Positions 1 to 51,224 of a stretch of DNA of 64,000 nt are shown here, one piece after another. Origin of the DNA: a virus; IMG/VR virus record IMGVR_UViG_3300027896_000017, positions 1-64,000 of that record; one strand, written 5' to 3'. The notes beneath the pieces were generated by a model that saw only the letters and a list, made by a program, of their open reading frames with translations, did no database searches and was not told the DNA's origin. The position numbers were made by a program, and so were the translations under genes. The first letter of the stretch is position 1. The number at the start of each line of letters is the position of its first letter.

Positions 1-67
1 GTTGTACAAAATAACCCGCGCTGAGTTTATAGGCGGCTCTCATTAACAATCATCAGCGAGGTCATCC

Positions 68-292
68 ATGAAACGCTTTTTAGGAACTGTAGCTTTGCTT
101 TCGGTGCTATTGGTTGTCGGATGTCGCAGTATATATTCACCCTGCGATGTCGTACTGTATTCTGTAAATGGCTCCGTCATTCAGCAATGGCAGGGCGTTA
201 AATATGTTCGGGTTTATAATGGTATAGCACGTTTCATGGATGACGGGAACTATGTGCGCATTTCAGGTACTTTTATCGTTAATATGAAGTAA
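68..292 (+). CDS. small putative lipoprotein (cassette gene)
   Basis: Signal peptide ending LLVVGC; GAGG RBS; fills cassette 1. Confidence 0.65.
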   Translation: MKRFLGTVALLSVLLVVGCRSIYSPCDVVLYSVNGSVIQQWQGVKYVRVYNGIARFMDDGNYVRISGTFIVNMK

Positions 293-461
293 TGCCGCCA
301 ACATTATTGAGGCGCGGGTTACTTCGTACAACACCGGCGTTATGCAATGCGGATCACATTAAGGAGTTGGAATTATAGCCGCACTGCACAACACCGGAAA
401 CGTTGGTGGAAATGCTCGCCTTAAGAAATTTTTGATAGGCGGGCGCAAAGAAAGGTTCATT

Positions 462-761
462 ATGGTTGATTGTAAACTTCCGACGTTGTCAGTAGCTACT
501 TGTGAGTATCAAGAGTTTTTCGATAACCGAACGCAGTGTAATGGTCGTGGCATGTTCGAAGGTCATTGCCCGTTTCGTAAGGTTGTGGAAGATGCGCCCG
601 CTGACACTATGGAAGCGGCGAGCACATCCACCAACACTCAAAGCCATGCAATTTCGCTTTGCCTTGTGTGCATTAAAGAACCGTGTTCGCAGCGGAGCGA
701 GCTTCCGTCATGTCCAGTAACCGTTTGTGCCATGCGCCAAGCGAAACATGCAGGCGTTTGA
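462..761 (+). CDS. Cys-rich hypothetical protein (cassette gene)
   Basis: ATG after GAAAGG; reads through the attC-like hairpin. Confidence 0.55.
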   Translation: MVDCKLPTLSVATCEYQEFFDNRTQCNGRGMFEGHCPFRKVVEDAPADTMEAASTSTNTQSHAISLCLVCIKEPCSQRSELPSCPVTVCAMRQAKHAGV

Positions 762-800
762 GAAAGTTGTAGTCAATTACCATTTTCTTTGGAGTTATAA

Positions 801-1007
801 ATGGCCGCAAAAACATACGAAGAGTTCATGGCGCAAGAAACTTTTGACGCTGTACCGTTACCTGAAATTGGTCGCTACATTTGGGATGCGGCCATTAAAT
901 CTGTTGAGGAAAATGGTAACAGCCTACAACAGCGAAAGTGTGCCATTAAAAAATGTGGTTGTCCAACATGCGGTATTCCAGTATCGGAATGTCCTCGTGT
1001 AAAGTAA
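801..1007 (+). CDS. hypothetical protein (cassette gene)
   Basis: GGAG RBS; Cys-rich C-terminus encoded within the attC-like hairpin. Confidence 0.6.
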   Translation: MAAKTYEEFMAQETFDAVPLPEIGRYIWDAAIKSVEENGNSLQQRKCAIKKCGCPTCGIPVSECPRVK

Positions 1008-1362
1008 CGGCACACGTTTCGCACACGTTGTAAGAAATAAATTTTGCTCTTTAAAATTATAGGCACACTTCTGTACGGGCCATACGAACGACGAAGGGTA
1101 ATATGGCGGGTAAAGTGTCATTCGACTCCGTTACATCCCGTAAGTGTGCTTTACATTAAGGTAGCAAAATTTACATCTTACAACAAATAAAGGTTGCCAT
1201 GTGTGCCTATATCAAAAACTGACCGTACCAGTAATCGAACGGTATAACATTACGGCTCTTATACTCAGTAGGTTTTTATAGGCACTCACGGCAACCGTTT
1301 ATCAAACGTTAGGCACAATACCGGCTCCGACCACACCAATGACGGCGCGAGGAAAGGAAAAA

Positions 1363-1674
1363 ATGAAAACACACATTAATAAAATTTACGGAACTGAGTT
1401 AGAAAAAGTATGCATAGATGAACCTCCGTATACTGTTTTTGGAAGTTCTGTCTTGTTGCCTTCTTTCCATGTTGCAATGAAAGTTGATGGGTTAAAAGAA
1501 ATATTAAAATTGGCAGACGACGATGATTCTTTTCATATCGAGATTTCGCATGAAAAAATGACAAGGTATTGGATAACAAGAAAAAGAAAAATCGTGCCGC
1601 AAGAAAGCGGAGCGGAGCCGGTACAATGCCTAACAAACAAAGGCCAAAATACCGGCGAATCTATAGGTAAATAG
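1363..1674 (+). CDS. hypothetical protein (cassette gene)
   Basis: ATG after GGAAAGG. Confidence 0.6.
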   Translation: MKTHINKIYGTELEKVCIDEPPYTVFGSSVLLPSFHVAMKVDGLKEILKLADDDDSFHIEISHEKMTRYWITRKRKIVPQESGAEPVQCLTNKGQNTGESIGK

Positions 1675-1745
1675 TTATTAATAGGCCGGTACTTAGGCCA
1701 TTTGTTAACGTTGTACGCAATGAACTTCTTAGAAAGGTTTTTACT

Positions 1746-1982
1746 ATGTCTAAACTAGGCGGTAGGTGTATATGTAAGTTATGTGATCTTGAGAACACGG
1801 GTACTTGTATCATAGAGGCCGCAAAAATAGGATACTGTGGTGCTCAGTCCACAGACGTACAACAGCTAAAGGCTAAAATTGCCTCACTTGTTGCGGAATT
1901 TTGTGAGCTTTACGACAGGGGTTTGAGCAATGAAGCCGTGTCTCTTTTACTAACTAAACTGCGGCAACTATCAGCCGTTTAA
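1746..1982 (+). CDS. hypothetical protein (cassette gene, QQLKA..KLRQLSAV tail)
   Basis: GAAAGG RBS; C-terminal motif shared with ORFs 2034 and 9061. Confidence 0.6.
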   Translation: MSKLGGRCICKLCDLENTGTCIIEAAKIGYCGAQSTDVQQLKAKIASLVAEFCELYDRGLSNEAVSLLLTKLRQLSAV

Positions 1983-2033
1983 CGAAACGTTGTGACGCAA
2001 GCTAATTGAACTTTTAATTTGAAAGGAGCGGCT

Positions 2034-2339
2034 ATGAGTCAAGGAACAGTTGATCCGGTCGGTGAAATGGTCAGCAAAGCCATCACCAATCATCTTCATC
2101 ATGCCAACCGTAGGTACTATAACGAGCGGGACGACTTTCTTCTCGGTAATTTACATGAGGATATGTGCAAACTGGTAAGAGCCGCACAGAAGAGCGTGGA
2201 GGTTCAGTTGGCCAGCGCACAACAGCTAAAGGCTGAAATTGCCGCTCTTGTTAAGGAGTATAGTGGTACATTTGATGGTATGCATTCTTTAAGTGAGAAT
2301 GAATTTTTACATAAACTGCAGCAACTATCAGCCGTTTAG
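2034..2339 (+). CDS. hypothetical protein (cassette gene, QQLKAEI..KLQQLSAV tail)
   Basis: GAAAGGAG RBS before ATG 2034. Confidence 0.6.
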   Translation: MSQGTVDPVGEMVSKAITNHLHHANRRYYNERDDFLLGNLHEDMCKLVRAAQKSVEVQLASAQQLKAEIAALVKEYSGTFDGMHSLSENEFLHKLQQLSAV

Positions 2340-2515
2340 CAGGACATTGGTTGCAATTGGCAACGAGAGCGTTTTATAGTTCCGCTGCTAGAAAGAATAT
2401 AACATGAATAATCCAAATGGTAGATAATGGTATTAGCCGTTGGCACAGGTTCGATTCCTGTATCGACATGAATATTTATTTATTATTTCATTTACTTTAA
2501 CTGAAAGGTAATAAT

Positions 2516-2716
2516 ATGGAATATTTATCATTTACTTTATGGATGTTATGCTATCCATTATTCAGTACAATTGGATGTTATTTAATGGTAAAATATCATG
2601 AAGTTTCACCATTAAAAAAATGTACCTCATCAAATATCGGCATTGTTACGTTAATTGATTTAATTATATACATATATATTGGAATGCTTTTATGGCGATC
2701 TGTCACAAATCCATAA
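2516..2716 (+). CDS. small membrane protein
   Basis: GAAAGG RBS; two hydrophobic segments. Confidence 0.6.
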   Translation: MEYLSFTLWMLCYPLFSTIGCYLMVKYHEVSPLKKCTSSNIGIVTLIDLIIYIYIGMLLWRSVTNP

Positions 2717-2729
2717 TAAAGAGGTGTCT

Positions 2730-2993
2730 ATGAATGAAATTAAACCAAAATTTTCAAATTTAACTAATAAAATGCATTTATTATTAAATCAAATAATAAA
2801 CGCAGAAAAGGGGGCGAGAGAATTAATAATAGAAATGCATAATTATGAACGAATACCTCCTGCAGAGGTGCTTATTACAGAATCTCTTCTTAAAGAGTTA
2901 TGTAATGCTCTTGGATGGCAAGGAGGCACACGCCATCAGGCGCTGGATAAAGTTAAACGATTGGTACAAATAGAACAGAAAGGAAAACAATGA
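2730..2993 (+). CDS. hypothetical protein
   Basis: GAGGTG RBS; ATGA overlap with next ORF. Confidence 0.6.
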   Translation: MNEIKPKFSNLTNKMHLLLNQIINAEKGARELIIEMHNYERIPPAEVLITESLLKELCNALGWQGGTRHQALDKVKRLVQIEQKGKQ

Positions 2994-3196
2994 AATTATT
3001 TATATTTTTAAAACAATACTTTTGTAAACATGTATGGAAGGATGGTAAAAAAACACTTTTAAGTCAAAGATGGGAAAATTATGCAGAACAGGATGGTGTT
3101 CCTATTCAGGCACACTTTTCTTATAATAGCATTGAACAAAAATGCATTAAATGCAACAAAGAAAGGATAATAGAAAAACGGGTAATAATTACATAA
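2990..3196 (+). CDS. small Cys/His (CxH..CxxC) protein
   Basis: ATGA overlap; FCKH and CIKC motifs. Confidence 0.6.
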   Translation: MKLFIFLKQYFCKHVWKDGKKTLLSQRWENYAEQDGVPIQAHFSYNSIEQKCIKCNKERIIEKRVIIT

Positions 3197-3212
3197 ATAT
3201 TATGATATTTTT

Positions 3213-3975
3213 GTATAGTAAGTGTATCGTATCGCATGGTATTGTGCCATCAAGTAAATGTTATGTATTGTGCCATCTAGTAACGTAATGCGTAATAAAA
3301 TCTAGTAAAGTAAATGTAAGGTGTAACATAGTACCGTCTAGTAAATGCGCTGTAATGTAGTGTCATATCAAGTAAATGTAAAGTAAAGTCGGGCAGGGTC
3401 TCGTTATGTGACGTTCTGTAAATGTAAAGTAAAGTGGTATGGTATGATGTTTAGTAAATATTGGGTTTTGTATAGTTGTGTAAATTTGTAAATGTTGGGT
3501 AGGGTGTTGTTATGTGAAATTCTGTAAATGTAAAGTAGTGTAAGGTAGAGTAGAGTGTTATTGCGTAAATGTATAGTAAAGTTGAGTATTGCTATGTAAA
3601 TGCAATGTGTAGTATTAAGTAATGTTTGGTAAATGTATTGTCATGTTGCATTAAGTAATGTGTGGTGCCGTAAATGTAATGCGTTGTATAGTATTATCTA
3701 GTAAATGTAACGTGAGGTCACATGATGTAAAGTAATATCTAGTAAATGTATGGTCGCGTGAAGTATCATGCAGTAAATGTTTTGTTATATAAAATTAAGT
3801 TGAGTATTATAAATGTAAGATAAAGTAAAGTAACGTGCATTGTAATATAAATGTAGGGTGAAGTCTAATGAAGTAAAGTTCAGTAAATGTGCTGTAAAGT
3901 AGCGTGAAGTAATGTTCAGTAAATGTGCTGTGTCGTGTTGTAAAGTATCGTCACGTAATGTTATGTAAATGTAAT
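3213..3975 (+). repeat. Pentamer array 1: (GT-NNN)n units delimited by GTAAAT; candidate guide-RNA array
   Basis: About 20 GTAAAT/ATAAAT delimiters, mostly spaced 31/36/41/46 nt (6+5n); RY (mostly GT) every 5 nt; no ORF. Confidence 0.9.
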
Positions 3976-4001
3976 TTAAACCTTAAATAAGGAGACGTAA
4001 A

Positions 4002-5067: not shown

Positions 5068-5303
5068 TAATGGTTATACTTTTATTATTTGTGGTATAAC
5101 CACAATAGAGCAACGGTCTTATTTTAAACTGCTGGATACTACGCGAATCGGAGCCTATTAACAGCCTAAGATCTCACCGAAGATACCTGGTGCGTTATTA
5201 GCGTCGTGTGCGGACTATTGCCCCCAAAAGCAATAAGATCTATCGACAAACCGAGGACCAGCAGTTTAATTTTTTCTTACACTTTTCTTTGAAAGGAATT
5301 AAC

Positions 5304-5510: not shown

Positions 5511-5860
5511 ATGTCGAGTAAGATAATGCGCTGTTCAGTAAATGTATTGTAAAGTTGTATACGATCAAATAGGGTGACGTTAATGTAAAGTAGGGTGGAG
5601 TTATGTTTGGTAAATGTTTTATACAGTAAAGTACCATAAAGTTATTATATGACGTTAGTGTTAAGTGAAGTGCCGTTTTGTGTGGTAAATGTTCTGTGGA
5701 GCCATGTTATATGGAATATCGTTTTGTGACGTTAATGTATTGTGTGATGGCATAAAATCTAGTAAATGTATAGTAAATGTGTGGTCGAGTCAAATGTAGT
5801 TTAGTAAATGTGCTGTTGGGTAAAATATAGTTCAGTAAATGTATTGTTATATTGTATTCA
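5507..5860 (+). repeat. Pentamer array 2 (GT-NNN units, GTAAAT/GTTAAT delimiters)
   Basis: Delimiters at 5507, 5538, 5579, 5610, 5654, 5685, 5731, 5762, 5773, 5804, 5835. Confidence 0.9.
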
Positions 5861-7500: not shown

Positions 7501-7652
7501 ATATTATTATATTAAATAAACACTTCATTATTTATAGAAAGGAAACTATCATCAAAATCCAAAAATTCTAATTGTTTCAGCATGTCTTGAAGAAGTTGGC
7601 ACTCAAACAAAAAAAACTGCCGACACAAACGTTCATTGAAAGGAAGTTTTCC

Positions 7653-8345
7653 ATGGAAGCGAAGAAAGTTCTCAAAATCGAAGCAGAGTTCTTAACAGAA
7701 TGCTTGGGAACAAACCCAAGTGACCCCAATGTTTATGCGTCATGGATTGCTGAAGAGGCCCCTGACAGGGCCACAACAGCCAGTGATATTGCAGGTATGA
7801 CCACCACGATGGAAGTTCATCGTGCCCAACTTCGCGCTGCCGCAGAAGCGAATCCTAATGCGCCTGCAGTAGAAGAAGTTGAAGATGCAAATCTTATCGA
7901 TCCCAAAGGAAAAACTATCTTCTTAAAAACAGAAGATGGCAAGCCCTATCTTCCCGCATATATGATTAAGGGCTTTCTCAAGTCGTCTGCCAAAGCTCAG
8001 AATCGTATCCCTGGCAGCAGAGTCAGTGGCATAAAGGCCAACCAGCAGGTCATAACTGACCTGATTTTTGTAACCCCTGCCAAGGTCATGCTGGAACTGC
8101 CCAGCGGAGCCACCATTGGTGAGCTTCAGCGCCCTCTCTGCATTGCAAATTCGCCTACTGGCCCCAGGACAGCCATCAGTGTCAGCGAGTCTGTTCCAGT
8201 TGGAACTAAATTCAAATTCCAAGTGGAAATGTTAAGGGGAGATCTAGAACCTCTGGCAAAGGATCTACTGGACTACGGCGAGCGTAAGGGCATAGGACAG
8301 TGGAGAAATGCAGGTAAGGGGTCGTTCTCTTATCGCATTGTATAG
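7653..8345 (+). CDS. stand-alone Cas7/Csm3-like RAMP protein
   Basis: N-terminal beta strand LKIEAEFLTECLG; PYLPAYMIKGFLK (RAMP P.IP.S.LKG motif); ESVPVGTKFKFQV; C-terminal Gly-rich loop GIGQWRNAGKGSF. GAAAGGA RBS before ATG 7653. Confidence 0.85.
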   Translation: MEAKKVLKIEAEFLTECLGTNPSDPNVYASWIAEEAPDRATTASDIAGMTTTMEVHRAQLRAAAEANPNAPAVEEVEDANLIDPKGKTIFLKTEDGKPYLPAYMIKGFLKSSAKAQNRIPGSRVSGIKANQQVITDLIFVTPAKVMLELPSGATIGELQRPLCIANSPTGPRTAISVSESVPVGTKFKFQVEMLRGDLEPLAKDLLDYGERKGIGQWRNAGKGSFSYRIV

Positions 8346-8988: not shown

Positions 8989-9029
8989 CAATTCAATGAG
9001 TTACTATTGTATATTACATACAATAACTA

Positions 9030-9297
9030 GTTGTAGTCAATTTAAAATTGGAGATATTATATGATTAGTTGGTATCGTTATTCTGAATTGTCTGATGGTG
9101 GCATAGAAGATGCTCCACGTTTTGCGTATCGAGATGATGTGGAGCCAATTTTAAACAGCCTACAACAGCTAAAGGCTGAAATTTCCGCTCTTCTTACCGA
9201 ATATTATCATTATCAATATGAGGTTTCTCGTCCCGAATTGGCTGAAATTACATGGAACAAATTGCGGAAACTATCAGCCATTTAGCAAACGTTGTGC
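9030..9297 (+). mobile_element. isolated attC-like cassette
   Basis: GTTGTAGTCAATTTAAAATTGG (9030) is complementary to CCAATTTTAAACAGCCTACAAC (9145-9166); hairpin runs to AAAC GTTGTGC (9291). Confidence 0.65.
9061..9285 (+). CDS. hypothetical cassette protein (QQLKAEI..KLRKLSAI)
   Basis: GGAG RBS; shared attC-encoded tail. Confidence 0.6.
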   Translation: MISWYRYSELSDGGIEDAPRFAYRDDVEPILNSLQQLKAEISALLTEYYHYQYEVSRPELAEITWNKLRKLSAI

Positions 9298-9895
9298 GAA
9301 ATAAGAGATTGTTTTTATGGTTGTAGACGGTCACACATCAATTCCCGGTGGAATCTCGGGCAATGGGGTAGGTTCGACGCCTACATGTGACAAGTGGACG
9401 CACGAGCAGACCGCTTTACACTATGGAGGCAATCTCTTAAATTGCCATGTGTAAAAATAGTGCCACCGGTTGAAAGTACCAGTGATTTCAGGCTTGGGGT
9501 GGCTTGGCTTGTGACCTCACATATGGCAATTATATATTATTTACAATTCTTTTATAGGAGAATTATATGTGGCAATTCTTTGGTTTTATTTTTTGTTTTT
9601 TGATATTAGCTACAATATTTGCTGAGATTGTAATGCATCTACCTTAAATTCAGGACGAATATTATAAATAGTCATATTATATAGACGGTTGCAGCAATGA
9701 ACATACCATATGCAGGGCATATATCGTGGGTTAGCTACCCTGCTCGTCGGCCTGTAAGTGTCGATCACTTCATATCACGCTTGTTATTTTGGACCGAAAG
9801 GGATGAAGGAGTAACAAGATACCACAGGTAAGCATATGGGCAACCGTCTTATAAATATTATTTTTAAATTTTTAAACTTTAATTGATGTGCACAA

Positions 9896-10607: not shown

Positions 10608-11534
10608 ATGTCATCCTGGCATAGCTATCCATCTGTTTACGCGTTGGGGCACAAGGCTATAGAGAATTTATTCAAAGACCCTGTTCTGGTTGAGGAAAAG
10701 ATCGATGGCAGCCAGATGTCTTTTGGTAGATTTAACAAAGAATTGAAAGTTAAATCAAAGGGTAAAGAAATGTATCCTGAAGCGCCAGAAAATTTATTTG
10801 AAGAAGCTGTCAAATTTGTATCTACTCTCGATCTTCATGATGGTTGGACTTATCGCGGAGAATGCCTTAAGAAACCACATCATAACGCATTGGTTTATGA
10901 TAGGGTTCCTAAAGGTAATGTAATCCTGTTTGATATTAATACTGATGAGGAACAATACCTTTCAAGGAAAGATAAAGAAATTGAGGCTACTCGTTTAGGT
11001 ATTGAAATTGTGCCAGTTATGTATGAAGGCATGATTTCTACTCCAGAGGAAGTGCTTATCTTCCTTGAAAAACAATCTATTCTGGGTGGCCAGAAGGTTG
11101 AAGGTGTGGTTATTAAAAATTACGCTCAGTTTGGGCGCGACAAGAAGGTGCTCATGGGGAAGTATGTCTCAGAGCAATTTAAGGAGGTTAACAGGGAGAA
11201 CTGGAAAGAAGCCAATCCTCAACAGGGGGATATCATTACTCGCCTTATAAACGCTTACAAGACGCCTGCAAGGTGGAATAAGGCTGTTCTGCACCTGGAG
11301 GAGCGTGGCGAGCTTGAGAGGTCTCCTCGTGATATAGGAAAGCTTATAAACGAGGTTAAGGCTGATTTAAAGAAAGAGTGCGAAGAAGAGATTAAGCAAG
11401 CCTTCTACGACTGGGGGATTGGCAATATTTTAAGAGGGGCTGTAACAAGACTTCCTGAGTGGTATAAAGAGGAATTGTTGAAGTTACAATTCCATATTAA
11501 ACCAGAGAATCAGCAAGATGTTAAACCCAGCTGA
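10608..11534 (+). CDS. ATP-dependent RNA ligase (Rnl2-like)
   Basis: Motif I EEKIDGS, YRGE, LFDI, EGVVIKN. Confidence 0.85.
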   Translation: MSSWHSYPSVYALGHKAIENLFKDPVLVEEKIDGSQMSFGRFNKELKVKSKGKEMYPEAPENLFEEAVKFVSTLDLHDGWTYRGECLKKPHHNALVYDRVPKGNVILFDINTDEEQYLSRKDKEIEATRLGIEIVPVMYEGMISTPEEVLIFLEKQSILGGQKVEGVVIKNYAQFGRDKKVLMGKYVSEQFKEVNRENWKEANPQQGDIITRLINAYKTPARWNKAVLHLEERGELERSPRDIGKLINEVKADLKKECEEEIKQAFYDWGIGNILRGAVTRLPEWYKEELLKLQFHIKPENQQDVKPS

Positions 11535-11564: not shown

Positions 11565-11925
11565 GGGGGTGCACGGTTTCGACAGATTTGATGAAAATTA
11601 AGTTGCATGTCGTGGATGATTGTTGGCCACGTTAAACATCAATCACGTATCAACTGCCGAAGATTATTCTTTCGCAGAAATGCTGAAAGTCGCCTAATTA
11701 AAGGTGACGAGGGTTAGTGATCATGCTCTGAATCATTAATCTACTAATGAGCTAGAGATTATATGGGTGGCCTTCGTGACATATAATTTTGAAATTATCT
11801 GAGGTTGATCTTGAGATGGTATTGCTGGTATCGAGTTTCAAGATCATATCTAAAACCAGCTAAACATGTAGTAACTTAATTAGAGTCGAATTTGGACAGG
11901 AGTTCAATTCTCCTCACCTCCACCA
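11565..11925 (+). ncRNA. ssrA: tmRNA
   Basis: 5' GGGGGTG..GGTTTCGAC; 3' T-arm AGGAGTTCAATTCTCCT and CACCTCC-ACCA; tag ORF AEDYSFAEMLKVA* at 11656-11697. Confidence 0.95.
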
Positions 11926-14215: not shown

Positions 14216-15121
14216 ATTAATCATACTCAATGGTTTGCTCAGAACAATAAATTCCAACAACATGAACAATGGCTGGTTGATAATGTAATATTAGAAACTA
14301 TAGTTGGGTCTCATGCATATGGATGTCAGACGCCACAATCTGATTATGATTTGGCCGCAATAGTATTACCAAGATGTGAACATCTAAATCCACAAAAATT
14401 CGGGTTCATACTTGGGTTCGATAATTTGCCAAATTTTAAACGTAAAGAAATTAAAGGCAAAAAAGTCGATATAAATGGTAAATTATTTGAGGCTGAATGG
14501 ATATCATTAATAGAATTCTTTGTTCAGGCAGGGTTAAAAGGGTCACCTAATCTTATTGAAATTCTTTTTGCAAACAGAGAGTTTGTTACTGTAGGAACAA
14601 AAATGGGGTGGCGTCTTCGTGATAATAGACGTTTATTCCTTTCAATGAAAACATATCATGCGTTTCGTGGGTATGCGTGTGGTCAAATGCATAGAATAAG
14701 ACAGCGTAATCCTGAAACAGAAGATCGTAAGGCTATGGTAGCCAAATATGGATACGATCTTAAAATGGCTTTTCATACTTTACGTTTAATGGATCAAATA
14801 GATCAAATACTCACCATTAATGATATTGATTTAATGAGAAATAAAGAAGAATGCAAATTAATGCGCAATGGAGAATGGGGAGATTTTGATAGATTTGATA
14901 AAGAGTTTCAAAAACGTATGGATCATCTTGAAGAGCTTTCCAGGAAATGCAACTTGCCGCCTCAACCACAACAAGGGGCGTTAAAGCAGCTTTTAGTGAG
15001 TATACTGGAAGAACACTATCCTGTTGACGAAATGATACAAATGACAGATGAGTATGTTTCTGCAAAACAAGTAAATGATAAGTTGGATGAAATAATTAAT
15101 TTAATAAAGAAACCTCAATAA
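14216..15121 (+). CDS. Pol beta-superfamily nucleotidyltransferase (RlaP/YcgL-like), ATT start
   Basis: GSHAYG..PQSDYD catalytic motif lies upstream of the called TTG; AGGAGG sits 5 nt before in-frame ATT 14216; GYDLK.A.H..RL motif. Confidence 0.8.
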   Translation: MNHTQWFAQNNKFQQHEQWLVDNVILETIVGSHAYGCQTPQSDYDLAAIVLPRCEHLNPQKFGFILGFDNLPNFKRKEIKGKKVDINGKLFEAEWISLIEFFVQAGLKGSPNLIEILFANREFVTVGTKMGWRLRDNRRLFLSMKTYHAFRGYACGQMHRIRQRNPETEDRKAMVAKYGYDLKMAFHTLRLMDQIDQILTINDIDLMRNKEECKLMRNGEWGDFDRFDKEFQKRMDHLEELSRKCNLPPQPQQGALKQLLVSILEEHYPVDEMIQMTDEYVSAKQVNDKLDEIINLIKKPQ

Positions 15122-39415: not shown

Positions 39416-40810
39416 TTAAGATGCAAATGCTTTTGTAATAGTGGAAAAATAATTGGTACCGTTATAATATATAGACACTATATCAATAGCACTTGCTGTA
39501 GTGCTTAATACTAATCCTAAAGCTGTACCCCCAGGTGCTCTTACAGTATTGGGCCAAGTTGCGACTTTACTACCAGTACCGTCTTGAGTGCATCTTAATA
39601 CTAAATTGCAGGGCCCATTAGGAGCTGAAAAGATAAAAGTGCAATTTCCAGTTAAGGTTATTTTTTGTTTTTGCCCATTAATCCAGTTAATTGTGGTAGC
39701 CCCGCTACCATTACCATTATCGTACTCAGATACATATGATGCTGTTTTTAAGGCGGACATATCGCCAGAATCGCTTAATATTACAGAGCTATTTTGAATG
39801 GTTTTGCCATCAGCGCCACTCCATCTAACAATAGCCTTATCTGTAGAAGAAACTGGCATAACATATCCAGATCCAGAATAACCAGAAGTTCCTGACGTTC
39901 CAGACGCCCCAGATATTCCAGATGTTCCAGAAGTCCCAGACACACCAGAAGTTCCAGACGTTCCAGATGCTCCAGATGTTCCAGAAGTTCCAGAAGTTCC
40001 AGAAGTTCCAGAGGTTCCAGAAGTACCTATTCCAGAGACTCCAGACGTTCCAGAAGTTCCTGATGTTCCAGACACCCCAGATATTCCAGATGTCCCAGAA
40101 GCCCCAGACACACCAGAAGTTCCAGATGCTCCAGATGTTCCAGATGTTCCAGATGTTCCAGATGTTCCAGATGTTCCAGAGGTTCCAGAAGTACCTATTC
40201 CAGAGGCTCCAGACGTTCCAGAAGTTCCTGACGTTCCAGATACCCCAGATATTCCAGATGTCCCAGAAGTCCCAGACATACCAGAAGTTCCAGACGTTCC
40301 AGATGCTCCAGATGTTCCAGATGTTCCAGATATTCCAGAGGTTCCAGATGTTCCAGAAGTACCTATTCCAGAAGCCCCAGACGCTCCAGAAGCTCCTGAT
40401 GTTCCAGATGCCCCAGATATTCCAGATGTCCCAGAAACCCCAGACGTTCCAGACGCTCCAGACGTTCCAGAAGTTCCAGAAGTTCCTGAAGTTCCAGACG
40501 CTCCAGATGTTCCAGATTCTCCAGATGTCCCAGATGTTCCAGAAACTCCTGATGTTCCAGATCTTCCTGACGTCCCAGATGTTCCTGATGCCCCTGATAT
40601 TCCAGACGTTCCAGAATAACCAGAATAGCCATAAGTATTAGGATTTATAGAACGATAAACCCCATTAGCGTCTCGATATCCTAAATTTCCAGTATCGTTC
40701 TCAATCCCTATTTGACATAAATCTATATGGCTATTTAAATCCGAACTAGTGTTATTAATTTCGGTAATGTGGACCTGTTCGGCATTAATATCATTATAAG
40801 TATTGGGCAT
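39416..40810 (-). CDS. Gly-X-Ser repeat fibre protein
   Basis: About 250 aa of (SGT/SGA/SGV)n; N-terminus shared with the 45481-51180 protein; tail-fibre-like C-terminus. Confidence 0.8.
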   Translation of the reverse strand: MPNTYNDINAEQVHITEINNTSSDLNSHIDLCQIGIENDTGNLGYRDANGVYRSINPNTYGYSGYSGTSGISGASGTSGTSGRSGTSGVSGTSGTSGESGTSGASGTSGTSGTSGTSGASGTSGVSGTSGISGASGTSGASGASGASGIGTSGTSGTSGISGTSGTSGASGTSGTSGMSGTSGTSGISGVSGTSGTSGTSGASGIGTSGTSGTSGTSGTSGTSGTSGASGTSGVSGASGTSGISGVSGTSGTSGTSGVSGIGTSGTSGTSGTSGTSGTSGASGTSGTSGVSGTSGTSGISGASGTSGTSGYSGSGYVMPVSSTDKAIVRWSGADGKTIQNSSVILSDSGDMSALKTASYVSEYDNGNGSGATTINWINGQKQKITLTGNCTFIFSAPNGPCNLVLRCTQDGTGSKVATWPNTVRAPGGTALGLVLSTTASAIDIVSIYYNGTNYFSTITKAFAS

Positions 40811-40841
40811 AAACTTTTCCTTTTTTTATATTAACTATTTA

Positions 40842-43040
40842 TTAAGAGTTAATTCCAAATTCTAAACCAGCTATTAAAGATAATATTGGACCAACACCCC
40901 AAAATGTTTGAGGTTCATTTTGACTATTATAATCAGTTAAAATCCAATCTGTGGAACGAGCAATATTTGAGATTCTTATTTCATCTAATGAACCATAGAA
41001 ATACGTTTGTGCCGATGCTGTACCTCGACCAATAACCAATTGTGTAGTATAGCTACCTGTTCCCGCCGTATTTACTGTAATGCTTCGCTGAAACGTTCCA
41101 TTAAGATAAAAAGATAAAGTCGTTCCCGAATATACTAGACTTGCCCTATACCATACCCCAGCACTTATGGCAGTTTGGTCGGTAGCATTCCATAAGATAT
41201 TAGGCGCATGACGAGCCACACCTATACCAGTGGTCCATTGGAAAATCCTGTAATCGACTTTTGCGCCATCATCGTAATGCGAAACTAAGGCAGAATGGTC
41301 ATCTGTGTCAGTGGTACTAACTGCATTGAACCAGACCTCTTCAGTTATATCTCCACTAGTTATTCCTAAATTTTGTGAAACTGCTGCGTATTGTGTCGTA
41401 CCATTACAACTTCGCGCCTTGCCAATGTTGTTGTATCCTGTAGTTTCAGTTGTTCCACTATTAGTTAATGTATAACCGTTGGAAGTAGAGTCTGCAAGAG
41501 TGGCTGGGCTTCCCACACCATCTCCGTGATAAACAGCTTTATGGCTTGTGCTGTCCCAAACAGCATATTGTCCATAAGTTGCTGTTGGTTGATACGGCAA
41601 CGCATCAGATTTTCCCCACCATACATAAATTTTAATATCTACAGAAGAACTAATCGAAGGTACCTTTACCCATATTTCTGCCGAGGAAGTGCTTGGGGTT
41701 CCTGTATTATTAAACGAAACAATTTCAAAAGGTAATTGCACAAGCCCGCCTACATCACTAGAAAATCTTATATCACTACCATCTGAATTTGCCCCTAATC
41801 CACTTGTAAATATTTGTTGATCTAAATTCGATGTTCCTTGTGACCCAGTCCATACAAAAGGTGTAGTAAAGTTAGAATAAGTTGGGGCACCTAAACTGCA
41901 TTTTGTATGATTTTGAGTTAGTATAAGTTCCTGTTTCCATCCAATTGGAAAAATAGGAATAGTAAACCGTTCGTCATAATAAATAAAAGTCTCTGGTGAA
42001 CTTTGTGCTGCATAAGCACTTTTGGTATACGCCTCACTAGCTATACTATTTCCTATTCTTATTTCGTCAAGATAGCCATTGAGATATCCATCACCCGCCC
42101 AATTTGATTTTCCTAAATAGCAATTAGGTCGAGCTGCATCACGTAACCAACTTGGTGCAGATGTGGCAGAACCTACTACGACACCATTTATATATAAATT
42201 CAGTGTTCCTGCCGAACCATCCCATGTATATATAAAATGTTTCCACGCACCTGTTGACCATAAATTAGTATCTTGCCGGTAATAGTTGTTTGTGTTGTTA
42301 AACAGATGTATAGATCCTGTGACTGGACTGGTACCAGAATCGTGGTGTATTTCAAAGTTGTCCTGTCCTGCTCCGTTACCAAAATCAATTATACGAGAAC
42401 CCTGTTCAGCAAACGAGTTCCAATACACCCACCCCATAGCCGTCCAATAAGTTCCAAAATTCGGATTTCCAGCAGAAAGGCCTCCATTGATATACATATA
42501 GTTACTTGATCCATTGAAACTTCTTGCTTTACCAATAACACCATTTACTACTGATGTGCCAGAGTTTGTCATGTTAAACGAAGATCCAACCGAATTGTTC
42601 ATATTCGTACTGCCTGTATCATCACCATGATATACCATATTCCATCCCGGAAAAGCATTATAACGGCCAAAGGAATGACTGCTTGAATACTGCGTAGCAA
42701 GTGAATACCCCCACCAAAGATAAAAAGCCGTATCAACTATTGTTGATAAAGAAGGTAATTTTACCCATATTTCTGCACGATAATTTACAGTATCAAAAGT
42801 CACCACATCAAAAGGCAATTCCGTCAATCCTGCCGCATCTATACTAAACCTCAAATCACCACCACCATTCAATGCGGAATAAGCGCCTCCATCTATTAAA
42901 TATGATGGTATATTAGATGTTTCTGCGGTCCATATTAAAAGCACAGCAAAAGCCGAGTAGTCATTCTTAACCTTAGAAGAATTGACATTAAGTTTTAGTC
43001 TGTATTTCCACAGAGCTGTGTCTAATCTAATATCTGCCAT
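40842..43040 (-). CDS. tandem DUF2341 + LamG/ConA-like adhesin
   Basis: G.DLRF..LPF..AEIWVK.P..WWG and G.LDEIRIS motifs, twice. Confidence 0.8.
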   Translation of the reverse strand: MADIRLDTALWKYRLKLNVNSSKVKNDYSAFAVLLIWTAETSNIPSYLIDGGAYSALNGGGDLRFSIDAAGLTELPFDVVTFDTVNYRAEIWVKLPSLSTIVDTAFYLWWGYSLATQYSSSHSFGRYNAFPGWNMVYHGDDTGSTNMNNSVGSSFNMTNSGTSVVNGVIGKARSFNGSSNYMYINGGLSAGNPNFGTYWTAMGWVYWNSFAEQGSRIIDFGNGAGQDNFEIHHDSGTSPVTGSIHLFNNTNNYYRQDTNLWSTGAWKHFIYTWDGSAGTLNLYINGVVVGSATSAPSWLRDAARPNCYLGKSNWAGDGYLNGYLDEIRIGNSIASEAYTKSAYAAQSSPETFIYYDERFTIPIFPIGWKQELILTQNHTKCSLGAPTYSNFTTPFVWTGSQGTSNLDQQIFTSGLGANSDGSDIRFSSDVGGLVQLPFEIVSFNNTGTPSTSSAEIWVKVPSISSSVDIKIYVWWGKSDALPYQPTATYGQYAVWDSTSHKAVYHGDGVGSPATLADSTSNGYTLTNSGTTETTGYNNIGKARSCNGTTQYAAVSQNLGITSGDITEEVWFNAVSTTDTDDHSALVSHYDDGAKVDYRIFQWTTGIGVARHAPNILWNATDQTAISAGVWYRASLVYSGTTLSFYLNGTFQRSITVNTAGTGSYTTQLVIGRGTASAQTYFYGSLDEIRISNIARSTDWILTDYNSQNEPQTFWGVGPILSLIAGLEFGINS

Positions 43041-43049
43041 TATTTTCTC

Positions 43050-43298
43050 TTATTGAAGTATATTTGTTGGGATTTCGCCTTCATAAAATGCTTGTTCAGT
43101 TTCAGTGCCCTCATTAATAACATAAAAATTAACTTGGCGCTGAATTCCTATTGGTATTCCGTCTTTTATCTTTGTTTCAAAAACATTGGTTAAATATCTT
43201 TTTGTTATAAGATTTAATTCATTCTGGGCATGAGGTTCAACCTGCACGATTGCAGTAAAACGCGAAACAAGATCAGCAAGTAACTCAGTCTTTGTCAT
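43050..43298 (-). CDS. hypothetical protein
   Basis: AAGGGAG RBS. Confidence 0.6.
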   Translation of the reverse strand: MTKTELLADLVSRFTAIVQVEPHAQNELNLITKRYLTNVFETKIKDGIPIGIQRQVNFYVINEGTETEQAFYEGEIPTNILQ

Positions 43299-43319
43299 AA
43301 CATCTCCCTTGTTGTTGGA

Positions 43320-45479
43320 TTAAAAGAAAACAAAAAAGCTTCCACCTAATGTTGTTATTGCACCTACACTCCAAAAAGTCTGAGGCGAATTTTGGCTATT
43401 ATAATCAGTCAAAACCCATGCCGCAGAACGTTCTATACTTGATACGCGAAATTCATCTATTGAGCCATCATAAGAAAATGACCCACCCGGATAAATACCC
43501 ATTTCAAAGTCGGTTATGGTTCCAAATGCCTTAGTTTTACCTGTGTCAGATTGTATCTGTGAACCGTTACGATAAATTCTCATTGTCCCTGCAGCCACAT
43601 CTTTTGTAAACACCCAATAATTCCATTGCCCTTTCCAGTGTGATGAATCGTTGTCAAGAATATTTATTCTATCATAATTTCCTGCACAGTCCCAATAAAT
43701 ATTCTGATCGTCACCCCACGGACAATGCACATTTAGTTGTCGTGCTGGGCCTGCGGAAATCGCACCAAAAAGAGTGCCTTGCATCGGTTGGGTCGGCCCT
43801 CCATAATTCCACAATCCAATCGTAATCTTTCCACCTGATACTATAGTTGTATTAAGTACTGATACTGGAGGTGTAATGGCTTGACCGGAAACATTGAACT
43901 GGAACGCCTTGCCCAATTTTCCATCTATTAGTGTCGGCCAACTTGTAGCCGTAATACAATTTCTTGCATACGAAGTTGAGTCAGCACAAGCAGATGCAGT
44001 TTTCATGTGATAAACAGCTTCATGGCTTGTGCTATCCCAAACACCATACTGTCCGTAGGTTTCACTTGGAAGATATGCTATCGCATCTGATTTTCCCCAC
44101 CAGACATATATTATCGTGTCAGTAGAACTATTTACCGAAGAAACCTTAACCCATATTTCTGCAGAACCATTCCCTGATTTACTAAATGATACAATTTCAA
44201 ATGGCAGTTCTGTCGTTCCGGCAGCACCACTTGTGAAACGTATATCAGAACCATCAGAATTTGCACCTCCATTTGACGCAAAAATCTGAGAAGGCAGATT
44301 AGATGTTCCTGCCGTTCCTGTCCAGATAAATGGTGTAGTAAAATTACTCTGAGTGCCTGTTCCTACTTTAGTATGGTCTTGAGTTAATAAACACCTATAC
44401 TTCCATCCTGTTGGAAAAATTATACTATTAACAGTTCCAACACTCCAGAATGTCTGTGGCGAATTCTGATTATTATAATCAGTTGAAAGCCACTCAGCAG
44501 AACGAGCAATATTTGAGATTCTTATTTCATCTAATGAACCGTAAAAATATGTTTGAGCTGTTGCTGTGCCGCGTCCAATAACTAATTGTGTAGTATAAGT
44601 ACCTGATCCAGATGAGCTTACTGTTACACTACGTTGGAACGAACCGTTAAGATAAAAAGACAAAGTTGTTCCTGAATATACTAAGTCTGCTTTATACCAA
44701 GTGCCTGCACTTATTGCTGTTTCCGAAGTAGAGTTCCATGCAACAGCAGGTGCGTGACGAGCTACACCTATTCCTGTTGTATACTGAAATATTCTATAAT
44801 CAATTTTTGCCGTATCATCATAATGAGAAATCAAGGCTGAGTGGTCATCAGAATCAGTGGTATTAACAGCATTAAACCATAACGATTCTGTAACATTATC
44901 GTTTGTTATTCCTTGATTATCGGAACGAGATGCATATTGAGATAATCCATCACAACTTCTAGCCTTTCCAATCTTGCCTGTCGTTGATGTTGTTCCACTA
45001 TTAGTTGCCGTATAACCATTGGAAGTAGAATCTGCAAGATCACCTGAACCATCTCCATGATAAACAGCTTTATAAGAAGTCATCCAGACATTATTGCTTC
45101 CATATGTATCTGTAGGCCCATAAGCTGTAGCGTCAGATTTCCCCCACCAAACATAAGCCACTACATCAGTGATAGAATTAACTGATGGAATTTTAACCCA
45201 TATTTCAGCGGAGGATGTTCCAGGTGTTCCTGTATTGGTAATAGCTACAATTTCAAAAGGTAATTCGGTTGTTCCTTTTCTATCGCTAGTAAAACGTATG
45301 TCACTTCCGTCAGATTTTGCGCCTACTCCGCTAGTAAATATTTCTTGAGGCAAATTTGACGTACCAGAAGAACCGGTCCACACAAACAAGCTTGGAAAAT
45401 CTGATTGTGTGCCTGTACCAACTTTTGTGTGGTCTTGCACTAAGCGACATTTATAAGCCCAACCAGTAGGAAACGCCAT
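43320..45479 (-). CDS. tandem DUF2341 + LamG/ConA-like adhesin (paralog of 40842-43040)
   Basis: Same motifs twice; one module closely matches the paralog. Confidence 0.8.
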   Translation of the reverse strand: MAFPTGWAYKCRLVQDHTKVGTGTQSDFPSLFVWTGSSGTSNLPQEIFTSGVGAKSDGSDIRFTSDRKGTTELPFEIVAITNTGTPGTSSAEIWVKIPSVNSITDVVAYVWWGKSDATAYGPTDTYGSNNVWMTSYKAVYHGDGSGDLADSTSNGYTATNSGTTSTTGKIGKARSCDGLSQYASRSDNQGITNDNVTESLWFNAVNTTDSDDHSALISHYDDTAKIDYRIFQYTTGIGVARHAPAVAWNSTSETAISAGTWYKADLVYSGTTLSFYLNGSFQRSVTVSSSGSGTYTTQLVIGRGTATAQTYFYGSLDEIRISNIARSAEWLSTDYNNQNSPQTFWSVGTVNSIIFPTGWKYRCLLTQDHTKVGTGTQSNFTTPFIWTGTAGTSNLPSQIFASNGGANSDGSDIRFTSGAAGTTELPFEIVSFSKSGNGSAEIWVKVSSVNSSTDTIIYVWWGKSDAIAYLPSETYGQYGVWDSTSHEAVYHMKTASACADSTSYARNCITATSWPTLIDGKLGKAFQFNVSGQAITPPVSVLNTTIVSGGKITIGLWNYGGPTQPMQGTLFGAISAGPARQLNVHCPWGDDQNIYWDCAGNYDRINILDNDSSHWKGQWNYWVFTKDVAAGTMRIYRNGSQIQSDTGKTKAFGTITDFEMGIYPGGSFSYDGSIDEFRVSSIERSAAWVLTDYNSQNSPQTFWSVGAITTLGGSFFVFF

Positions 45480-45480
45480 G

Positions 45481-48400
45481 TTATGTCTCCTGACTTAAGG
45501 CTATTAAGTCCCATTTATCATCAGCCGCATGATAAATAAATCCCATATACAAAGTCTTTGATAAAACAGTTGTAGTAGGCAAAGCATTCCCCATTGCCCG
45601 ATACTTATCTCCAAAAGAAATAGCTCTTGCTGTTCCATTATCTTTTATTCTGATTATTAATTTTTCTCCCAATACCGGCGTTGATGTAGAATGATTATTT
45701 ATAGTTATTGCACCAGCTAAGGCGGTTATTGCGTAAATATCATATGTATCTATTTCAGGTGTCAAAGAAGTGTTAGAGGCCACACTTAAAGATCTTGGCT
45801 GATTCCTTTTATTAGTAAATGTAGTTGTGCTACTTGCAGTAACTCCTGCATATCCCGAAACACCAGAAGTTCCAGATGTTCCAGATGTTCCAGATGTCCC
45901 TGATGTTCCAGACACCCCAGACGTTCCAGATGTTCCAGAATACCCAGACGTTCCAGACGTTCCAGACGTTCCAGACGTTCCAGACGTTCCAGACGTTCCA
46001 GACGTTCCAGACGTTCCAGATGTTCCAGATGTTCCAGACGTCCCAGATGTCCCAGATGTTCCAGAATATCCACTTGTTCCAGATGTTCCAGATGTTCCAG
46101 ATGTTCCAGATGTTCCAGATGTTCCAGATGTTCCAGATGTTCCAGATGTTCCAGATGTTCCAGATGTTCCAGATGTTCCAGATGTTCCAGATGTTCCAGA
46201 TGTTCCAGAATATCCACTTGTTCCAGATGTTCCAGAATATCCACTTGTTCCAGATGTTCCAGATATTCCAGACGTCCCAGACGCTCCAGACGCTCCAGAC
46301 ACTCCAGACACTCCAGATGTGCCACTATATCCAGAAACCCCTTGAACAGTAAATGTAGTTTCTACCCAAGAAGAATCAGTCGTGCCCTGATATGTCCATG
46401 TCGCATTATGAGCATTAGCTTCACTATTTATAGCGACCACTCTAATTATAATTCTGTCTGTACTAAGTATTGATATTGGAGATTCTATTGTCCAATAGGT
46501 GTCATATGCGGTCACATCCACTGTAAGGGCCCCTGTAGATCCTACTACACCTCCAGATAGGGCGGTTACCACACCTGTAGCGGATCGTTTTTCTATTACA
46601 TAACCCGCTGATACATGCGCATTATTTGCAGAAAATCTACCATGAAATTTCCACGTTCCAACTGGTATTGAGGTCTCGCCTGGAACCGTTGCAACTGTTA
46701 GATAGCTATCAAAAGGAACATATGAAGAAGCGCTGGTTATTCCAGTAAGATTTTCTGTTGTTTCAGTACCTGTTGCCGGAACTCTTGTCAATTTTTCACA
46801 ATTTATTGTAATGGTAGCGGTAGTATTATTATTTGAATTAGTTAAAGAACCATATCCATTAGTAACAGTTATTGTCGAAGCAGTAACTGAGCGTATTGCC
46901 CATTCGTGGGTATCCATGGCTGTTGAAGAATTTGTAACTATAAATTTTTGACCAACTACCCAATTATCAGTTACAAAACTACCCGCGCCACTTCGAACTA
47001 TCGTGCCGGCGGCAGCAGAAAATGTAAAAGTATCTCCACCTGAAGCTTGTGAAGTAGGAGTGGTAATATCAGAACTTGTAGTATCAAACCAAAATTTTTG
47101 TCCAGTTACAGCCCCTTGTACTCCACTATACCCACTATTTCCAGAATATCCAGATGTCCCGGATGTTCCAGATGCTCCAGATGTTCCAGATGCTCCAGAC
47201 GCTCCAGATGTTCCAGAATATCCGCTTGTTCCAGACGCCCCAGACGCTCCAGACGCCCCAGATGTTCCAGATTCTCCAGATGTTCCAGATTCTCCAGATG
47301 TTCCAGATTCTCCAGACGTTCCAGATTCTCCGGATGTTCCAGATTCTCCAGAATATCCAGATTCGCCAGATGTTCCAGATGTTCCAGATACTCCAGATGC
47401 TCCAGACGTACCAGACGCCCCAGAATATCCTGACGTGCCAGAATAACCTTGTAATCCTGGTTCATCAGAAAAATTTATAGGTCTTGCAAAATCTTCTGGG
47501 ACAGTTTCTAAATTCCATCTTTTTGCATACATGAATTGAAAGTATACGTCTTCAATGAATGCTTTTTCTACTTCGCCATCATTATAAATATATGTAGTAA
47601 GTGTCCATGTTCCCGAATATCCAGAAATTCCGCCAGAATGCGTAATCTTACCATAATATTCATTGCCGCTTTCATCTGCTATTGGATTATGATTAATACC
47701 ATTTCTTAAATTACATATATCTTCATAGCCGCTTACCGGGACGCCTTCAGTTGTGTCAGGAAAAGAATCAACCGCCCTTTCTCCAATCATAGAATCGCTA
47801 ATATCATATTGAGAAATTCCTGAATATCCAGAAACGCCCACAAAAGCTTGTGTATTAGATATAATTTTTCTACCTTCAAAATTTGCGGTACTTCCTGATA
47901 TTCCAGATTCTCCAGAATATCCTGATTCACCAGAATATCCTGATTCACCAGAATATCCTGATTCACCAGAATATCCAGATTCGCCTGACGTTCCAGATGT
48001 CCCAGATGTCCCAGATGTTCCAGATGCCCCAGATTTTCCTGAAGTTCCAGATGCTCCAGATTCTCCAGAATATCCTGATTCTCCAGAATATCCAGATTCG
48101 CCTGATGTTCCAGACGCTCCAGATGTTCCAGATGTTCCAGACGTTCCAGATTTTCCTGAAGTTCCAGATGTTCCGGATTCTCCAGAATATCCTGATTCTC
48201 CAGAATAACCCGATTCTCCAGAATATCCTGATTCTCCAGAATATCCTGATTCTCCAGAATATCCAGATTCACCTGATGTTCCAGACGTTCCAGACGCCCC
48301 AGATGTTCCAGATGTTCCAGACGTTCCAGATTTTCCTGAAGTTCCAGATGTTCCGGATTCTCCAGAATATCCTGATTCTCCAGAATATCCTGATTCTCCA

Positions 48401-51180: not shown

Positions 51181-51224
51181 AATATTTTCTTTCAATGGTT
51201 AAGTGCATGTTTAATATTCAATAA

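Follow-up and report, generated by a model that had tools for sequence, protein, structure and literature searches.

The first 64 kb of the IMG/VR virus record IMGVR_UViG_3300027896_000017, a linear sequence of 116,767 bp, were analysed here and are called the window. They carry seven small gene cassettes that stand head to tail in 1-2345, and a solo cassette at 9030-9289. We consider it fairly probable that these are mobile cassette arrays of an integron-type, non-canonical system, which would act through single-stranded DNA and whose XerA-like enzyme would be supplied in trans. Integrons are, of course, the textbook system for capturing genes at folded single-stranded sites. A sequence-only reading of the same DNA had suggested a phage-borne, integron-like array whose integrase lies outside the window or comes from the host. 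That suggestion is supported by the logic of the cassettes, by junctions at GTT, by the presence of such arrays in unrelated phages, and by a recombinase that is linked to them elsewhere.

Each cassette extends from one GTTG to the next, and all are built to one plan. A cassette opens with GTTG-N5-AAT-stem, continues with a ribosome site and with zero or one small open reading frame (ORF) on the + strand, and closes with stem-ACA-N5-CAAC, a hairpin and AAAC, after which comes the next GTTG. Reading of the sequence and an inverted-repeat search find, in 1-2400, two kinds of pairing in alternation: long-range arms and local hairpins at the junctions. In the long-range kind, a left arm that starts with GTTG pairs with a right arm that ends with CAAC. 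Arms of 19-23 nt are separated by 54-332 nt; they pair over 9 bp, are interrupted by a conserved A.A/A.C internal loop, and then pair over 8-10 bp more. Here, only the outer GTTG/CAAC and the loop are constant. The remainder varies among cassettes while matching within each.

The junction site itself folds as CAAC, a single nucleotide (A), a 6-bp stem, one bulged base on the 3' arm, more stem, and a loop of 10-120 nt. On its 3' side, a 4-nt spacer (mostly AAAC) leads to GTTG, which is the polarity of attC; the median length is 122 nt. A covariance model built from 11 short sites, called R1, has eight matches in the window. Seven of these (321-413, 624-777, 919-1038, 1173-1319, 1623-1721, 1851-2001 and 2212-2357) confirm the seven consecutive sites of this form that had been proposed from the sequence alone, and the eighth, at 9155-9302, adds the junction of the solo cassette. 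A scan of the whole 116.8-kb record with R1 found no further sites.

All of the cassettes run on the + strand. The array begins right at the end of the contig, which has possibly cut the left part of cassette 1 (1-401; arms 1-21 and 312-332, hairpin in 321-413); its ORF at 68-292 encodes 74 amino acids (aa) with a lipoprotein-like signal. Cassette 2 (402-765) pairs 402-420 with 617-635, and has an ORF at 462-761 and a hairpin in 624-777. Cassette 3 (766-1026; arms 766-787 and 909-930, ORF 801-1007, hairpin in 919-1038) and the cassette at 9030 are paralogues, whose inner stems differ by a compensating change. Cassette 4 (1027-1307) pairs 1027-1048 with 1163-1184 and holds a hairpin at 1185-1307, whose arms are 1189-1211 and 1277-1299; no convincing ORF is found in it. 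Cassette 5 (1308-1709) has arms at 1308-1329 and 1613-1634, an ORF at 1363-1674, and a hairpin in 1623-1721 with arms 1639-1665 and 1676-1702.

Pairing is weaker in the last two cassettes of the array. In cassette 6 (1710-1988), the left arm starts at 1710 and the right arm runs to 1863; they form 8 bp and a bulged inner stem. Its ORF, at 1746-1982, passes through the hairpin in 1851-2001. Cassette 7 (left arm from 1989, right arm to 2223) likewise has an ORF, 2031-2339, that runs through its hairpin. The terminal site, in 2212-2357, has ATTG instead of GTTG at 2346. Thus, the array ends at 2345, and not at 2352 as had been placed earlier, with the seventh cassette starting at 1989. The solo cassette (9030-9289) pairs 9030-9051 with 9145-9166 and has an ORF at 9061-9285 and a hairpin in 9155-9302; in the element after 9290, the right arm has decayed.

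Two apparent motifs in the array were rejected. A protein family with a "QQLKAEI...LSAV" motif seemed to join ORFs 801-1007, 1746-1982, 2031-2339 and 9061-9285, but the motif is the hairpin arms read in frame; the stop codon falls in the 3' arm of the hairpin. The word TATAGG after the left arm, taken as a separate motif, proved to be part of the ribosome sites. No Pfam match was found for 8 cassette or flanking ORFs. As a separate observation, the kind of cassette that starts with GTTGTAAGAAAT and has no convincing ORF recurs, at 1027-1307 of the window, at 5127, 6032, 8908 and 10472 of locus L005, and at 789 of locus L011. In the window it holds the only sigma-70-like match of the array (1028-1057), and it could be a promoter cassette or an RNA cassette.

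The first bases of a cassette pair with its own end. This was scored by comparing the 20 nt that follow GTTG with the 20 nt that end at the cassette's own CAAC, in 50 cassettes bounded by consecutive sites at 12 loci. The mean score is 14.3 of 20 and the median 16, with 32 of the 50 at 15 or more; several of the low scores are one-base register slips of the model. Scored against the neighbour's end (the CAAC arm of the same junction), the same cassettes average 8.7, and none of the 50 reaches 15. All remaining ends average 8.5 (standard deviation 2.4), and 29 of 4106 reach 15. The claim that the first ~20 nt of a cassette are complementary to its own end, rather than to that of its neighbour, is therefore borne out. 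Throughout the genome, seven arm pairs match at 17 or more of 20 positions, six in 1-1634 and one at 9030-9166; 20 shuffles gave 0-3 pairs at 16 or more of 20.

A canonical integron carried by Vibrio phage MK672802 served as the control. There, 10 of 11 cassettes match their own end over 8-11 contiguous nt, and the mean score is 11.8 of 20. This, in turn, means that canonical cassettes already exceed the 7-bp core. The earlier claim that the 20-bp pairing is longer than the classical core survives; the yardstick does not, since the classical Vibrio value is 8-11 nt and not 7. The phage family roughly doubles the canonical own-end pairing, and adds to it a fixed internal loop.

The junction sites, for their part, are conserved in structure and not in sequence. 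R1 has 79 matches in 146.7 kb from 12 sources, and within each source these lie on a single strand. In the alignment of the sites, 90.2% of the paired cells hold a pair, against 67.7% in shuffles (none of 500 reaches the observed value) and 25-44% in controls where the alignment was slid; cells with a double change number 210, against 61.6 in shuffles. RNAalifold, run on a plain MAFFT alignment of the seed, returns the same fold, with compensation at 9 of 13 pairs. CAAC and GTTG pair in 96.8% of cells over the 79 sites. The 5' spacer is 1 nt (A in 68 of the 79) and the 3' spacer 4-5 nt. The sequence-only reading had reported one unpaired purine in most sites, and this is found again: the bulged base is a purine in 64 of the 79 aligned sites, and is G or A in seven of the eight in the window, the site at 1623-1721 showing a C in an ambiguous register.

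A recombinase gene adjoins such arrays in two phage contigs. In G006, 6 nt separate the first GTTG from the end of a co-oriented gene for a 268-aa recombinase (L015:1165-1968). The only other member of its family in IMG/VR, at locus L072 (54% identity), has a stop codon that overlaps the G of the first GTTG, ~100 nt before the contig ends; in both viral members, the gene thus stops 0-6 nt short of the array. L072, G006 and the window resemble one another over the 13 nt just 5' of the leading cassette. In the first two they are the end of the recombinase gene. In the window they are an attI-like left half-site, CATACAATAACTA, at 9017-9029 on the + strand, directly 5' of the solo cassette.

The best families for the 268-aa protein are archaeal-type XerA and, below the cut-off, integron integrase (TIGR02249, 125.5 bits against 265). 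Its best solved relative is the archaeal XerA 4a8e. Compared with VchIntIA (2a3v), it has 37 residues where IntI has 87, which means that the array-linked recombinase is without the IntI insertion. The family comprises 33 clusters at 43-100% identity, with the next homologues at 35% or less. Its alignment has invariant R, K, H-x-x-R, H and Y positions, which are assigned, from the alignment, as the putative catalytic set. R1 found no sites in the 750 kb of 79 viral loci that hold generic Xer-like genes, and metagenomes scanned with the recombinase profile yielded nothing but generic Xer, at 35% identity or less. One other candidate, a 373-aa integrase 1.4 kb from the array in G010, lies beside an excisionase-like gene and resembles an ordinary lysogeny module.

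The same family is found in bacterial chromosomes. In the phylum to which a Flavobacterium genome belongs (Bacteroidota), the family profile finds 55 of 401 sampled genomes, at 156-188 bits and with a contiguous match, and so the bacterial members also are without the insertion. In the phylum of a Methylobacter genome (Pseudomonadota), it finds 0 of 401. Two bacterial loci were read. Each consists of the gene, ~105 nt with a conserved hairpin, ..CTATATACTA/GTT (the slash marks the junction here and below), and then co-oriented cassettes with own-arm pairing and with hairpins ending in ..AAC/GTTG. A ..TA/GTTR motif lies 89-127 nt past the gene in 6 of 12 bacterial loci, and co-oriented arm pairs lie downstream of the gene in 5 of 11 larger ones. 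Three genomes are ~90% identical through the end of the gene and the spacer as far as TAGTT, and are unrelated beyond. Judged from these sequences, variable cassettes follow a conserved platform, which is the classical picture. A Bacteroidota contig at locus L231 (G740:C78; 62-868 and 1002-2295) may be arranged in another way; its array-type arm pairs lie upstream of the recombinase gene and seem to diverge from it, which is the canonical orientation.

Arrays of this kind recur in phages that are otherwise unrelated. An exact 22-mer of the hairpin is found in 11 stretches (10 contigs) of IMG/VR; in 185,579 species genomes it has 0 matches. The array and a structural region have no match in 50,697 phage records by blastn or megablast, and the relatives of ORF 7572-8345 have only 28-33% identity and no arrays. 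A complete 213-kb genome with terminal repeats (G002) has 21 sites, all within 3.8-12.2 kb, and whole-record scans with R1 found 5, 4 and 11 sites in three more records. In 9 kb of locus L005, the arm pairs number at least 17. Four array-bearing phages have almost no proteins in common, and no larger protein shared near the arrays was found. In these four, the GC of the array is 0.43, 0.41, 0.48 and 0.44, against 0.335, 0.313, 0.505 and 0.458 for the backbone. One whole cassette is common to two records, with 74% identity and both of its ends at GTTG.

In the complete 213-kb phage, the same ~60-nt hairpin site (L005 3793-3854 and 10422-10483) stands at the head of both sub-arrays, surrounded by AT-rich backbone. 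Larger cargo is present in some cassettes, as at L005 7607-8833 and L049 3976-4524. Large ORFs inside the L005 array were considered as recombinases, and proved to be cargo. One has a CxxxCxxC motif, which we take to be radical-SAM-like, and has no Pfam match; the other is not a recombinase either. One cargo ORF, in a cassette starting at GTTG, looks by eye like an HNH endonuclease.

Some signs of mobility come from Logan contigs of one freshwater metagenome run, which hold the region of the window. Over 1-4000, the array is split there into short contigs, with depths of 556-672 (1-404), 49.8 (375-1056), 88.9 (1027-1811) and 239 (2007-2245). The backbone has a depth of 99.5, and the cassettes thus span 0.5x to 6x of it. 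The contigs break at 375-404 and at 1027-1056. One contig ends at 404, right past GTT, and another begins at 1027, the G of the GTTG with which cassette 4 starts. A further contig fuses 24 nt identical to window 9006-9029 straight to 1027. Because 9006-9029 is the flank before the solo cassette, one half-site carries different cassettes behind it in the sample. These junctions and depths support mobility and do not prove it, as contigs cannot show rare forms or assign pieces to genomes.

Where the exchange falls can be approached through the junctions. Internal junctions read ..AAAC/GTTG. Junctions at the start of an array (the two G002 sub-arrays and window 9029/9030) read ..TA/GTTG. The three sites without the G all read ..AC/ATTG; two of these close the arrays of this window and of G002, while the third (L013) has only a weak match after it. 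A primary site ..TA/ATTG that is cut 5' of the G or A would give ..TA/GTTG at the start and ..AC/ATTG at the end, and a cut at G/TT would give the opposite pattern. The crossover is more likely, on the sequence of these few sites, to lie just 5' of the G than at G/TT. The earlier proposal was an exchange at G/TT: breaks in the Logan contigs and in the bacterial genomes fall within or just 5' of GTT, and the cut itself may lie just 5' of the G.

The bias among mismatches bears on what is folded. On the + strand, A.C mismatches outnumber G.T mismatches 24 to 5 in the arms of 43 distinct elements, and 48 to 12 in the hairpins. An A.C mismatch on the + strand is, of course, a G.T on the - strand, which favours a fold of the non-coding strand. 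Folded as single-stranded DNA, 1-1000 gives these stems on either strand, with z, relative to shuffles, of -3.85 for the + strand and -7.0 for the - strand. The excess of A.C, together with the better fold of the - strand, argues for a structure at the level of DNA, or at least of the non-coding strand, and against a function in the sense RNA.

We suggest the following mechanism. A tyrosine recombinase would excise and insert the cassettes as folded single-stranded DNA, with strands exchanged at the G of GTTG or one base 5' of it. Once a cassette is excised as a circle, its arms and hairpin would stack to form a single long hairpin that has the crossover in its AAAC bulge. If so, the long own-arm stem would be the recombination site of the circle, or would join the ends of the cassette within the array. 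The cognate enzyme would be the small XerA-like family without the IntI insertion, which heads arrays in two phage contigs and in Bacteroidota chromosomes. The arrays would be served in trans, by the host or by a co-infecting element, or would now be static cargo. The array in the window is probably one without a recombinase that is serviced in trans.

Several observations weigh against this interpretation. The 116.8-kb record lacks Phage_integrase (PF00589), Y1 transposase (PF01797, searched at E up to 1) and reverse transcriptase (PF00078), and tblastn found in it no remnant of the recombinase family. PF00589 is also absent from 8 of 10 other array-bearing records, including the complete G002. 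A phage without a recombinase gene implies that its arrays are serviced in trans or are static cargo; the earlier reading, which had called for a search of the rest of the record for a tyrosine recombinase, allowed for an integrase elsewhere, and so for this outcome. Phage contexts of the recombinase number only two, and the ..TA/GTTR motif is missing from 6 of the 12 bacterial loci. R1 scores the bacterial sites weakly, at 13.6-20.2 bits, and does not recognise canonical Vibrio attC sites (best 11.5 bits). In 307 bacterial genomes (5 + 151 + 151), it has one lone unpaired match; the weak scores, and the array present in the sampled genome G027, indicate that this scarcity reflects a narrow model and not an absent system. 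The pair counts given above come from an alignment fitted to R1. The bulge lies opposite AAC on the coding strand, a geometry like that of a bottom strand, and this conflicts with the mismatch bias; the two point to different acting strands. The differences in depth may stem from other phages in the sample that have the same cassettes. Neither recombination products nor excised circles were seen in the Logan contigs, which cannot show rare forms.

The missing recombinase suits a different history, in which such a system assembled the array in the genome of a bacterium or of another phage, from which it was taken up en bloc to become a set of fixed accessory genes, no longer shuffled. The ATTG of the terminal sites, and the decayed right arm in the element after 9290, would fit such a fossil. 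However, compensating changes keep the pairing of arms and hairpins between paralogous cassettes, cassette depths differ 10-fold in one sample, and an alternative junction exists at 1027. We hold a fossil array to be unlikely. It is more doubtful still that modules are exchanged through homology at regulatory hairpins that act as signals for transcription or in RNA. This would resemble the promoter/stem-loop (PeSL) elements of T4-like phages, which the available part of their description presents as sequence-conserved units of promoter plus terminator, and where ORFs flanked by PeSLs form mini-circles (PMC4122927). Hairpin arms, such as the 22-mer, are indeed conserved between unrelated phages. 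But the sites have no excess of promoters (3 promoter-like against 5.4 expected) or of terminators (3 terminator-like, all on the minus strand, against 2.9 expected), and no Rfam match apart from two chance ones at the level of microRNAs (E 0.25-0.41). Their stem sequences vary while the pairing stays, and exchange by homology leaves unexplained both the own-end pairing of the first 20 nt and the sharp breaks at GTT.

If, alternatively, the elements worked in RNA, the long-range stems and hairpins would be sites where a polycistronic early transcript is processed or stabilised, in the manner of RNase III. Stems of 20 bp that hold a small internal loop match RNase III substrates in size, and every ORF lies on one strand. 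Against this stand the rarity of G.U-type pairs relative to A.C on the sense strand (the 5 and 24, and the 12 and 48, given above), the better fold of the antisense strand, and right arms that lie inside ORFs in several cassettes. As junctions in DNA and the linkage to a recombinase would also go unexplained, an RNA function seems very improbable. We would also be most surprised to find here non-autonomous "peel and paste" elements like IS200/IS605, cut after ..AAAC/ by a Y1 HUH transposase acting in trans. The ..AC or ..TA before GTTG at the start and end of every cassette, and the bulged base in the hairpins, would suit them, and IS608 would offer a parallel to a cut beside a hairpin. The record, however, has no Y1 transposase, the hairpin sequences are not one conserved family, and the gene that adjoins the arrays encodes a Xer/IntI-clade tyrosine recombinase.

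The interpretation as mobile cassette arrays served by a XerA-like enzyme can be carried further, though here only tentatively. The system may be a second integron-type lineage, native to Bacteroidota and spread through unrelated phages, including jumbo ones; phages with such hosts would share an exchangeable pool of small accessory genes missed by standard integron finders. The 55 of 401 sampled genomes speak for the recombinase, and arrays were checked in 12 loci only. If it is real, a parallel system with another branch of recombinase and a readable grammar of sites would broaden the range of structure-specific recombination. It would account for the movement of small orphan genes among phages that are not related. 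With a natural intermediate at hand that is without the insertion, the evolutionary transition from Xer to IntI would become testable, and engineering would gain new sequence-free recombination sites.

The array resides in a large, AT-rich, tailed phage, whose record is 65% complete by CheckV and whose genes include a baseplate J protein, collagen-like fibres and glycosyltransferases. The GC of the array region is 0.40-0.46, against ~0.30-0.35 further along the window. Other features of the window deserve mention in their own right. GC-rich stretches 3' of the solo cassette (9300-9530 and 9680-9850, the second closed by a 9-nt inverted repeat) are without ORFs and without Rfam matches, and may be structured RNAs or decayed cassettes. 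Dense, irregular repeats of GTAAATG-like words fill the ORF-poor 3200-3620 and 5660-5850, with a GC skew of up to 0.47; Tandem Repeats Finder (TRF) gives a 31-nt period at 5771-5842, and these repeats may be iterons or a cluster of promoters. A full-length gene for transfer-messenger RNA (tmRNA) lies at 11565-11925 on the + strand (Rfam RF00023, 160 bits; ARAGORN tag peptide AEDYSFAEMLKVA). It is adjoined by a protein of an RNA ligase family (PF09414, E 8e-16), and there is a weak match to a RlaP-like nucleotidyltransferase of RNA repair, both entered under window 10608-11534 and 14351-15121. Very long collagen-repeat proteins (464 and 1904 aa), presumably fibres, lie in 39416-51195 on the - strand, beside Laminin_G_3/DUF2341 proteins.

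How, then, do these arrays compare with known systems? Like integrons, they consist of promoterless cassettes, head to tail, each with zero or one ORF and all in one orientation. Their sites are conserved in structure, with AAC/GTT boxes, a bulged base, an unpaired spacer and a variable loop. The first bases of a cassette pair with its own site, the platform ends at GTT, and arrays without an integrase occur in both. They differ in that the recombinase is XerA-like, without the insertion of ~50 aa found in IntI, and in that the array lies 3' of a co-oriented gene (in G006, L072 and 6 of 12 bacterial loci), with an attI-like site at the 3' end of that gene. The own-end stem, which contains a fixed A.A/A.C loop, measures ~20 bp, where 10 of 11 Vibrio cassettes have 8-11 nt, and the crossover would lie one base 5' of G/TT. 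Canonical attC, as the accessible portion of one account has it, carries 2-3 extrahelical bases opposite AAC on the bottom strand and an unpaired spacer of 5-6 nt per arm (PMC5027507). The sites here have a spacer of 1x4 nt and one bulge, opposite AAC on the coding strand. A classification of tyrosine recombinases does describe, in the part consulted, the insertion as "not fully conserved" in one subgroup, termed "integron-like" (PMC8138268). As to the hosts, integrons are described as very rare in Bacteroidetes in the portion at hand of the IntegronFinder 2.0 report (10.1101/2022.02.28.482270), and a review, in the section seen, places the phylum Bacteroidota among those where integrons have been detected (PMC8618304).

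With seven clustered attC-like sites and no recombinase in the record, the array is a candidate cluster of attC sites lacking an integron-integrase (CALIN), a class defined by two or more attC sites in a few kb of DNA with no integron integrase close by. CALINs and a few integrons are known from cultured phages, and IntI1 recombined five of six phage attC sites tested (Qi et al., 2023; PMC9892861). The CALINs of that study, as far as its available text goes, were found by canonical attC models with a minimum of two sites, and three sites are drawn for phage TJE1. Measured against this text, the arrays described here differ by reaching 21 sites and by their link to a different family of recombinase. 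The likeness to PeSL elements, so far as those are described in the part of PMC4122927 at hand, lies in small ORFs in plastic regions of large phages, in borders of repeated hairpins, and in a model of exchange by mini-circles. The arrays depart from them by having no promoter or terminator signal, stems that covary, and cassette ends that pair together. In the literature compared, which leaves aside the roster of 17 CALIN phages, we found no description of arrays with a 20-bp own-end stem or with this recombinase family at their head. Recombinases of the Xer clade do act on or beside modular accessory DNA, and folded single-stranded DNA is the substrate at the attP of CTX phage. The pdif modules of Acinetobacter plasmids, which XerC/D serve, have dif-type sites that are conserved 28-bp duplex sequences. 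Unlike these dif-type sites, the cassette arrays hold fixed only GTTG/CAAC and the AAT/ACA loop.

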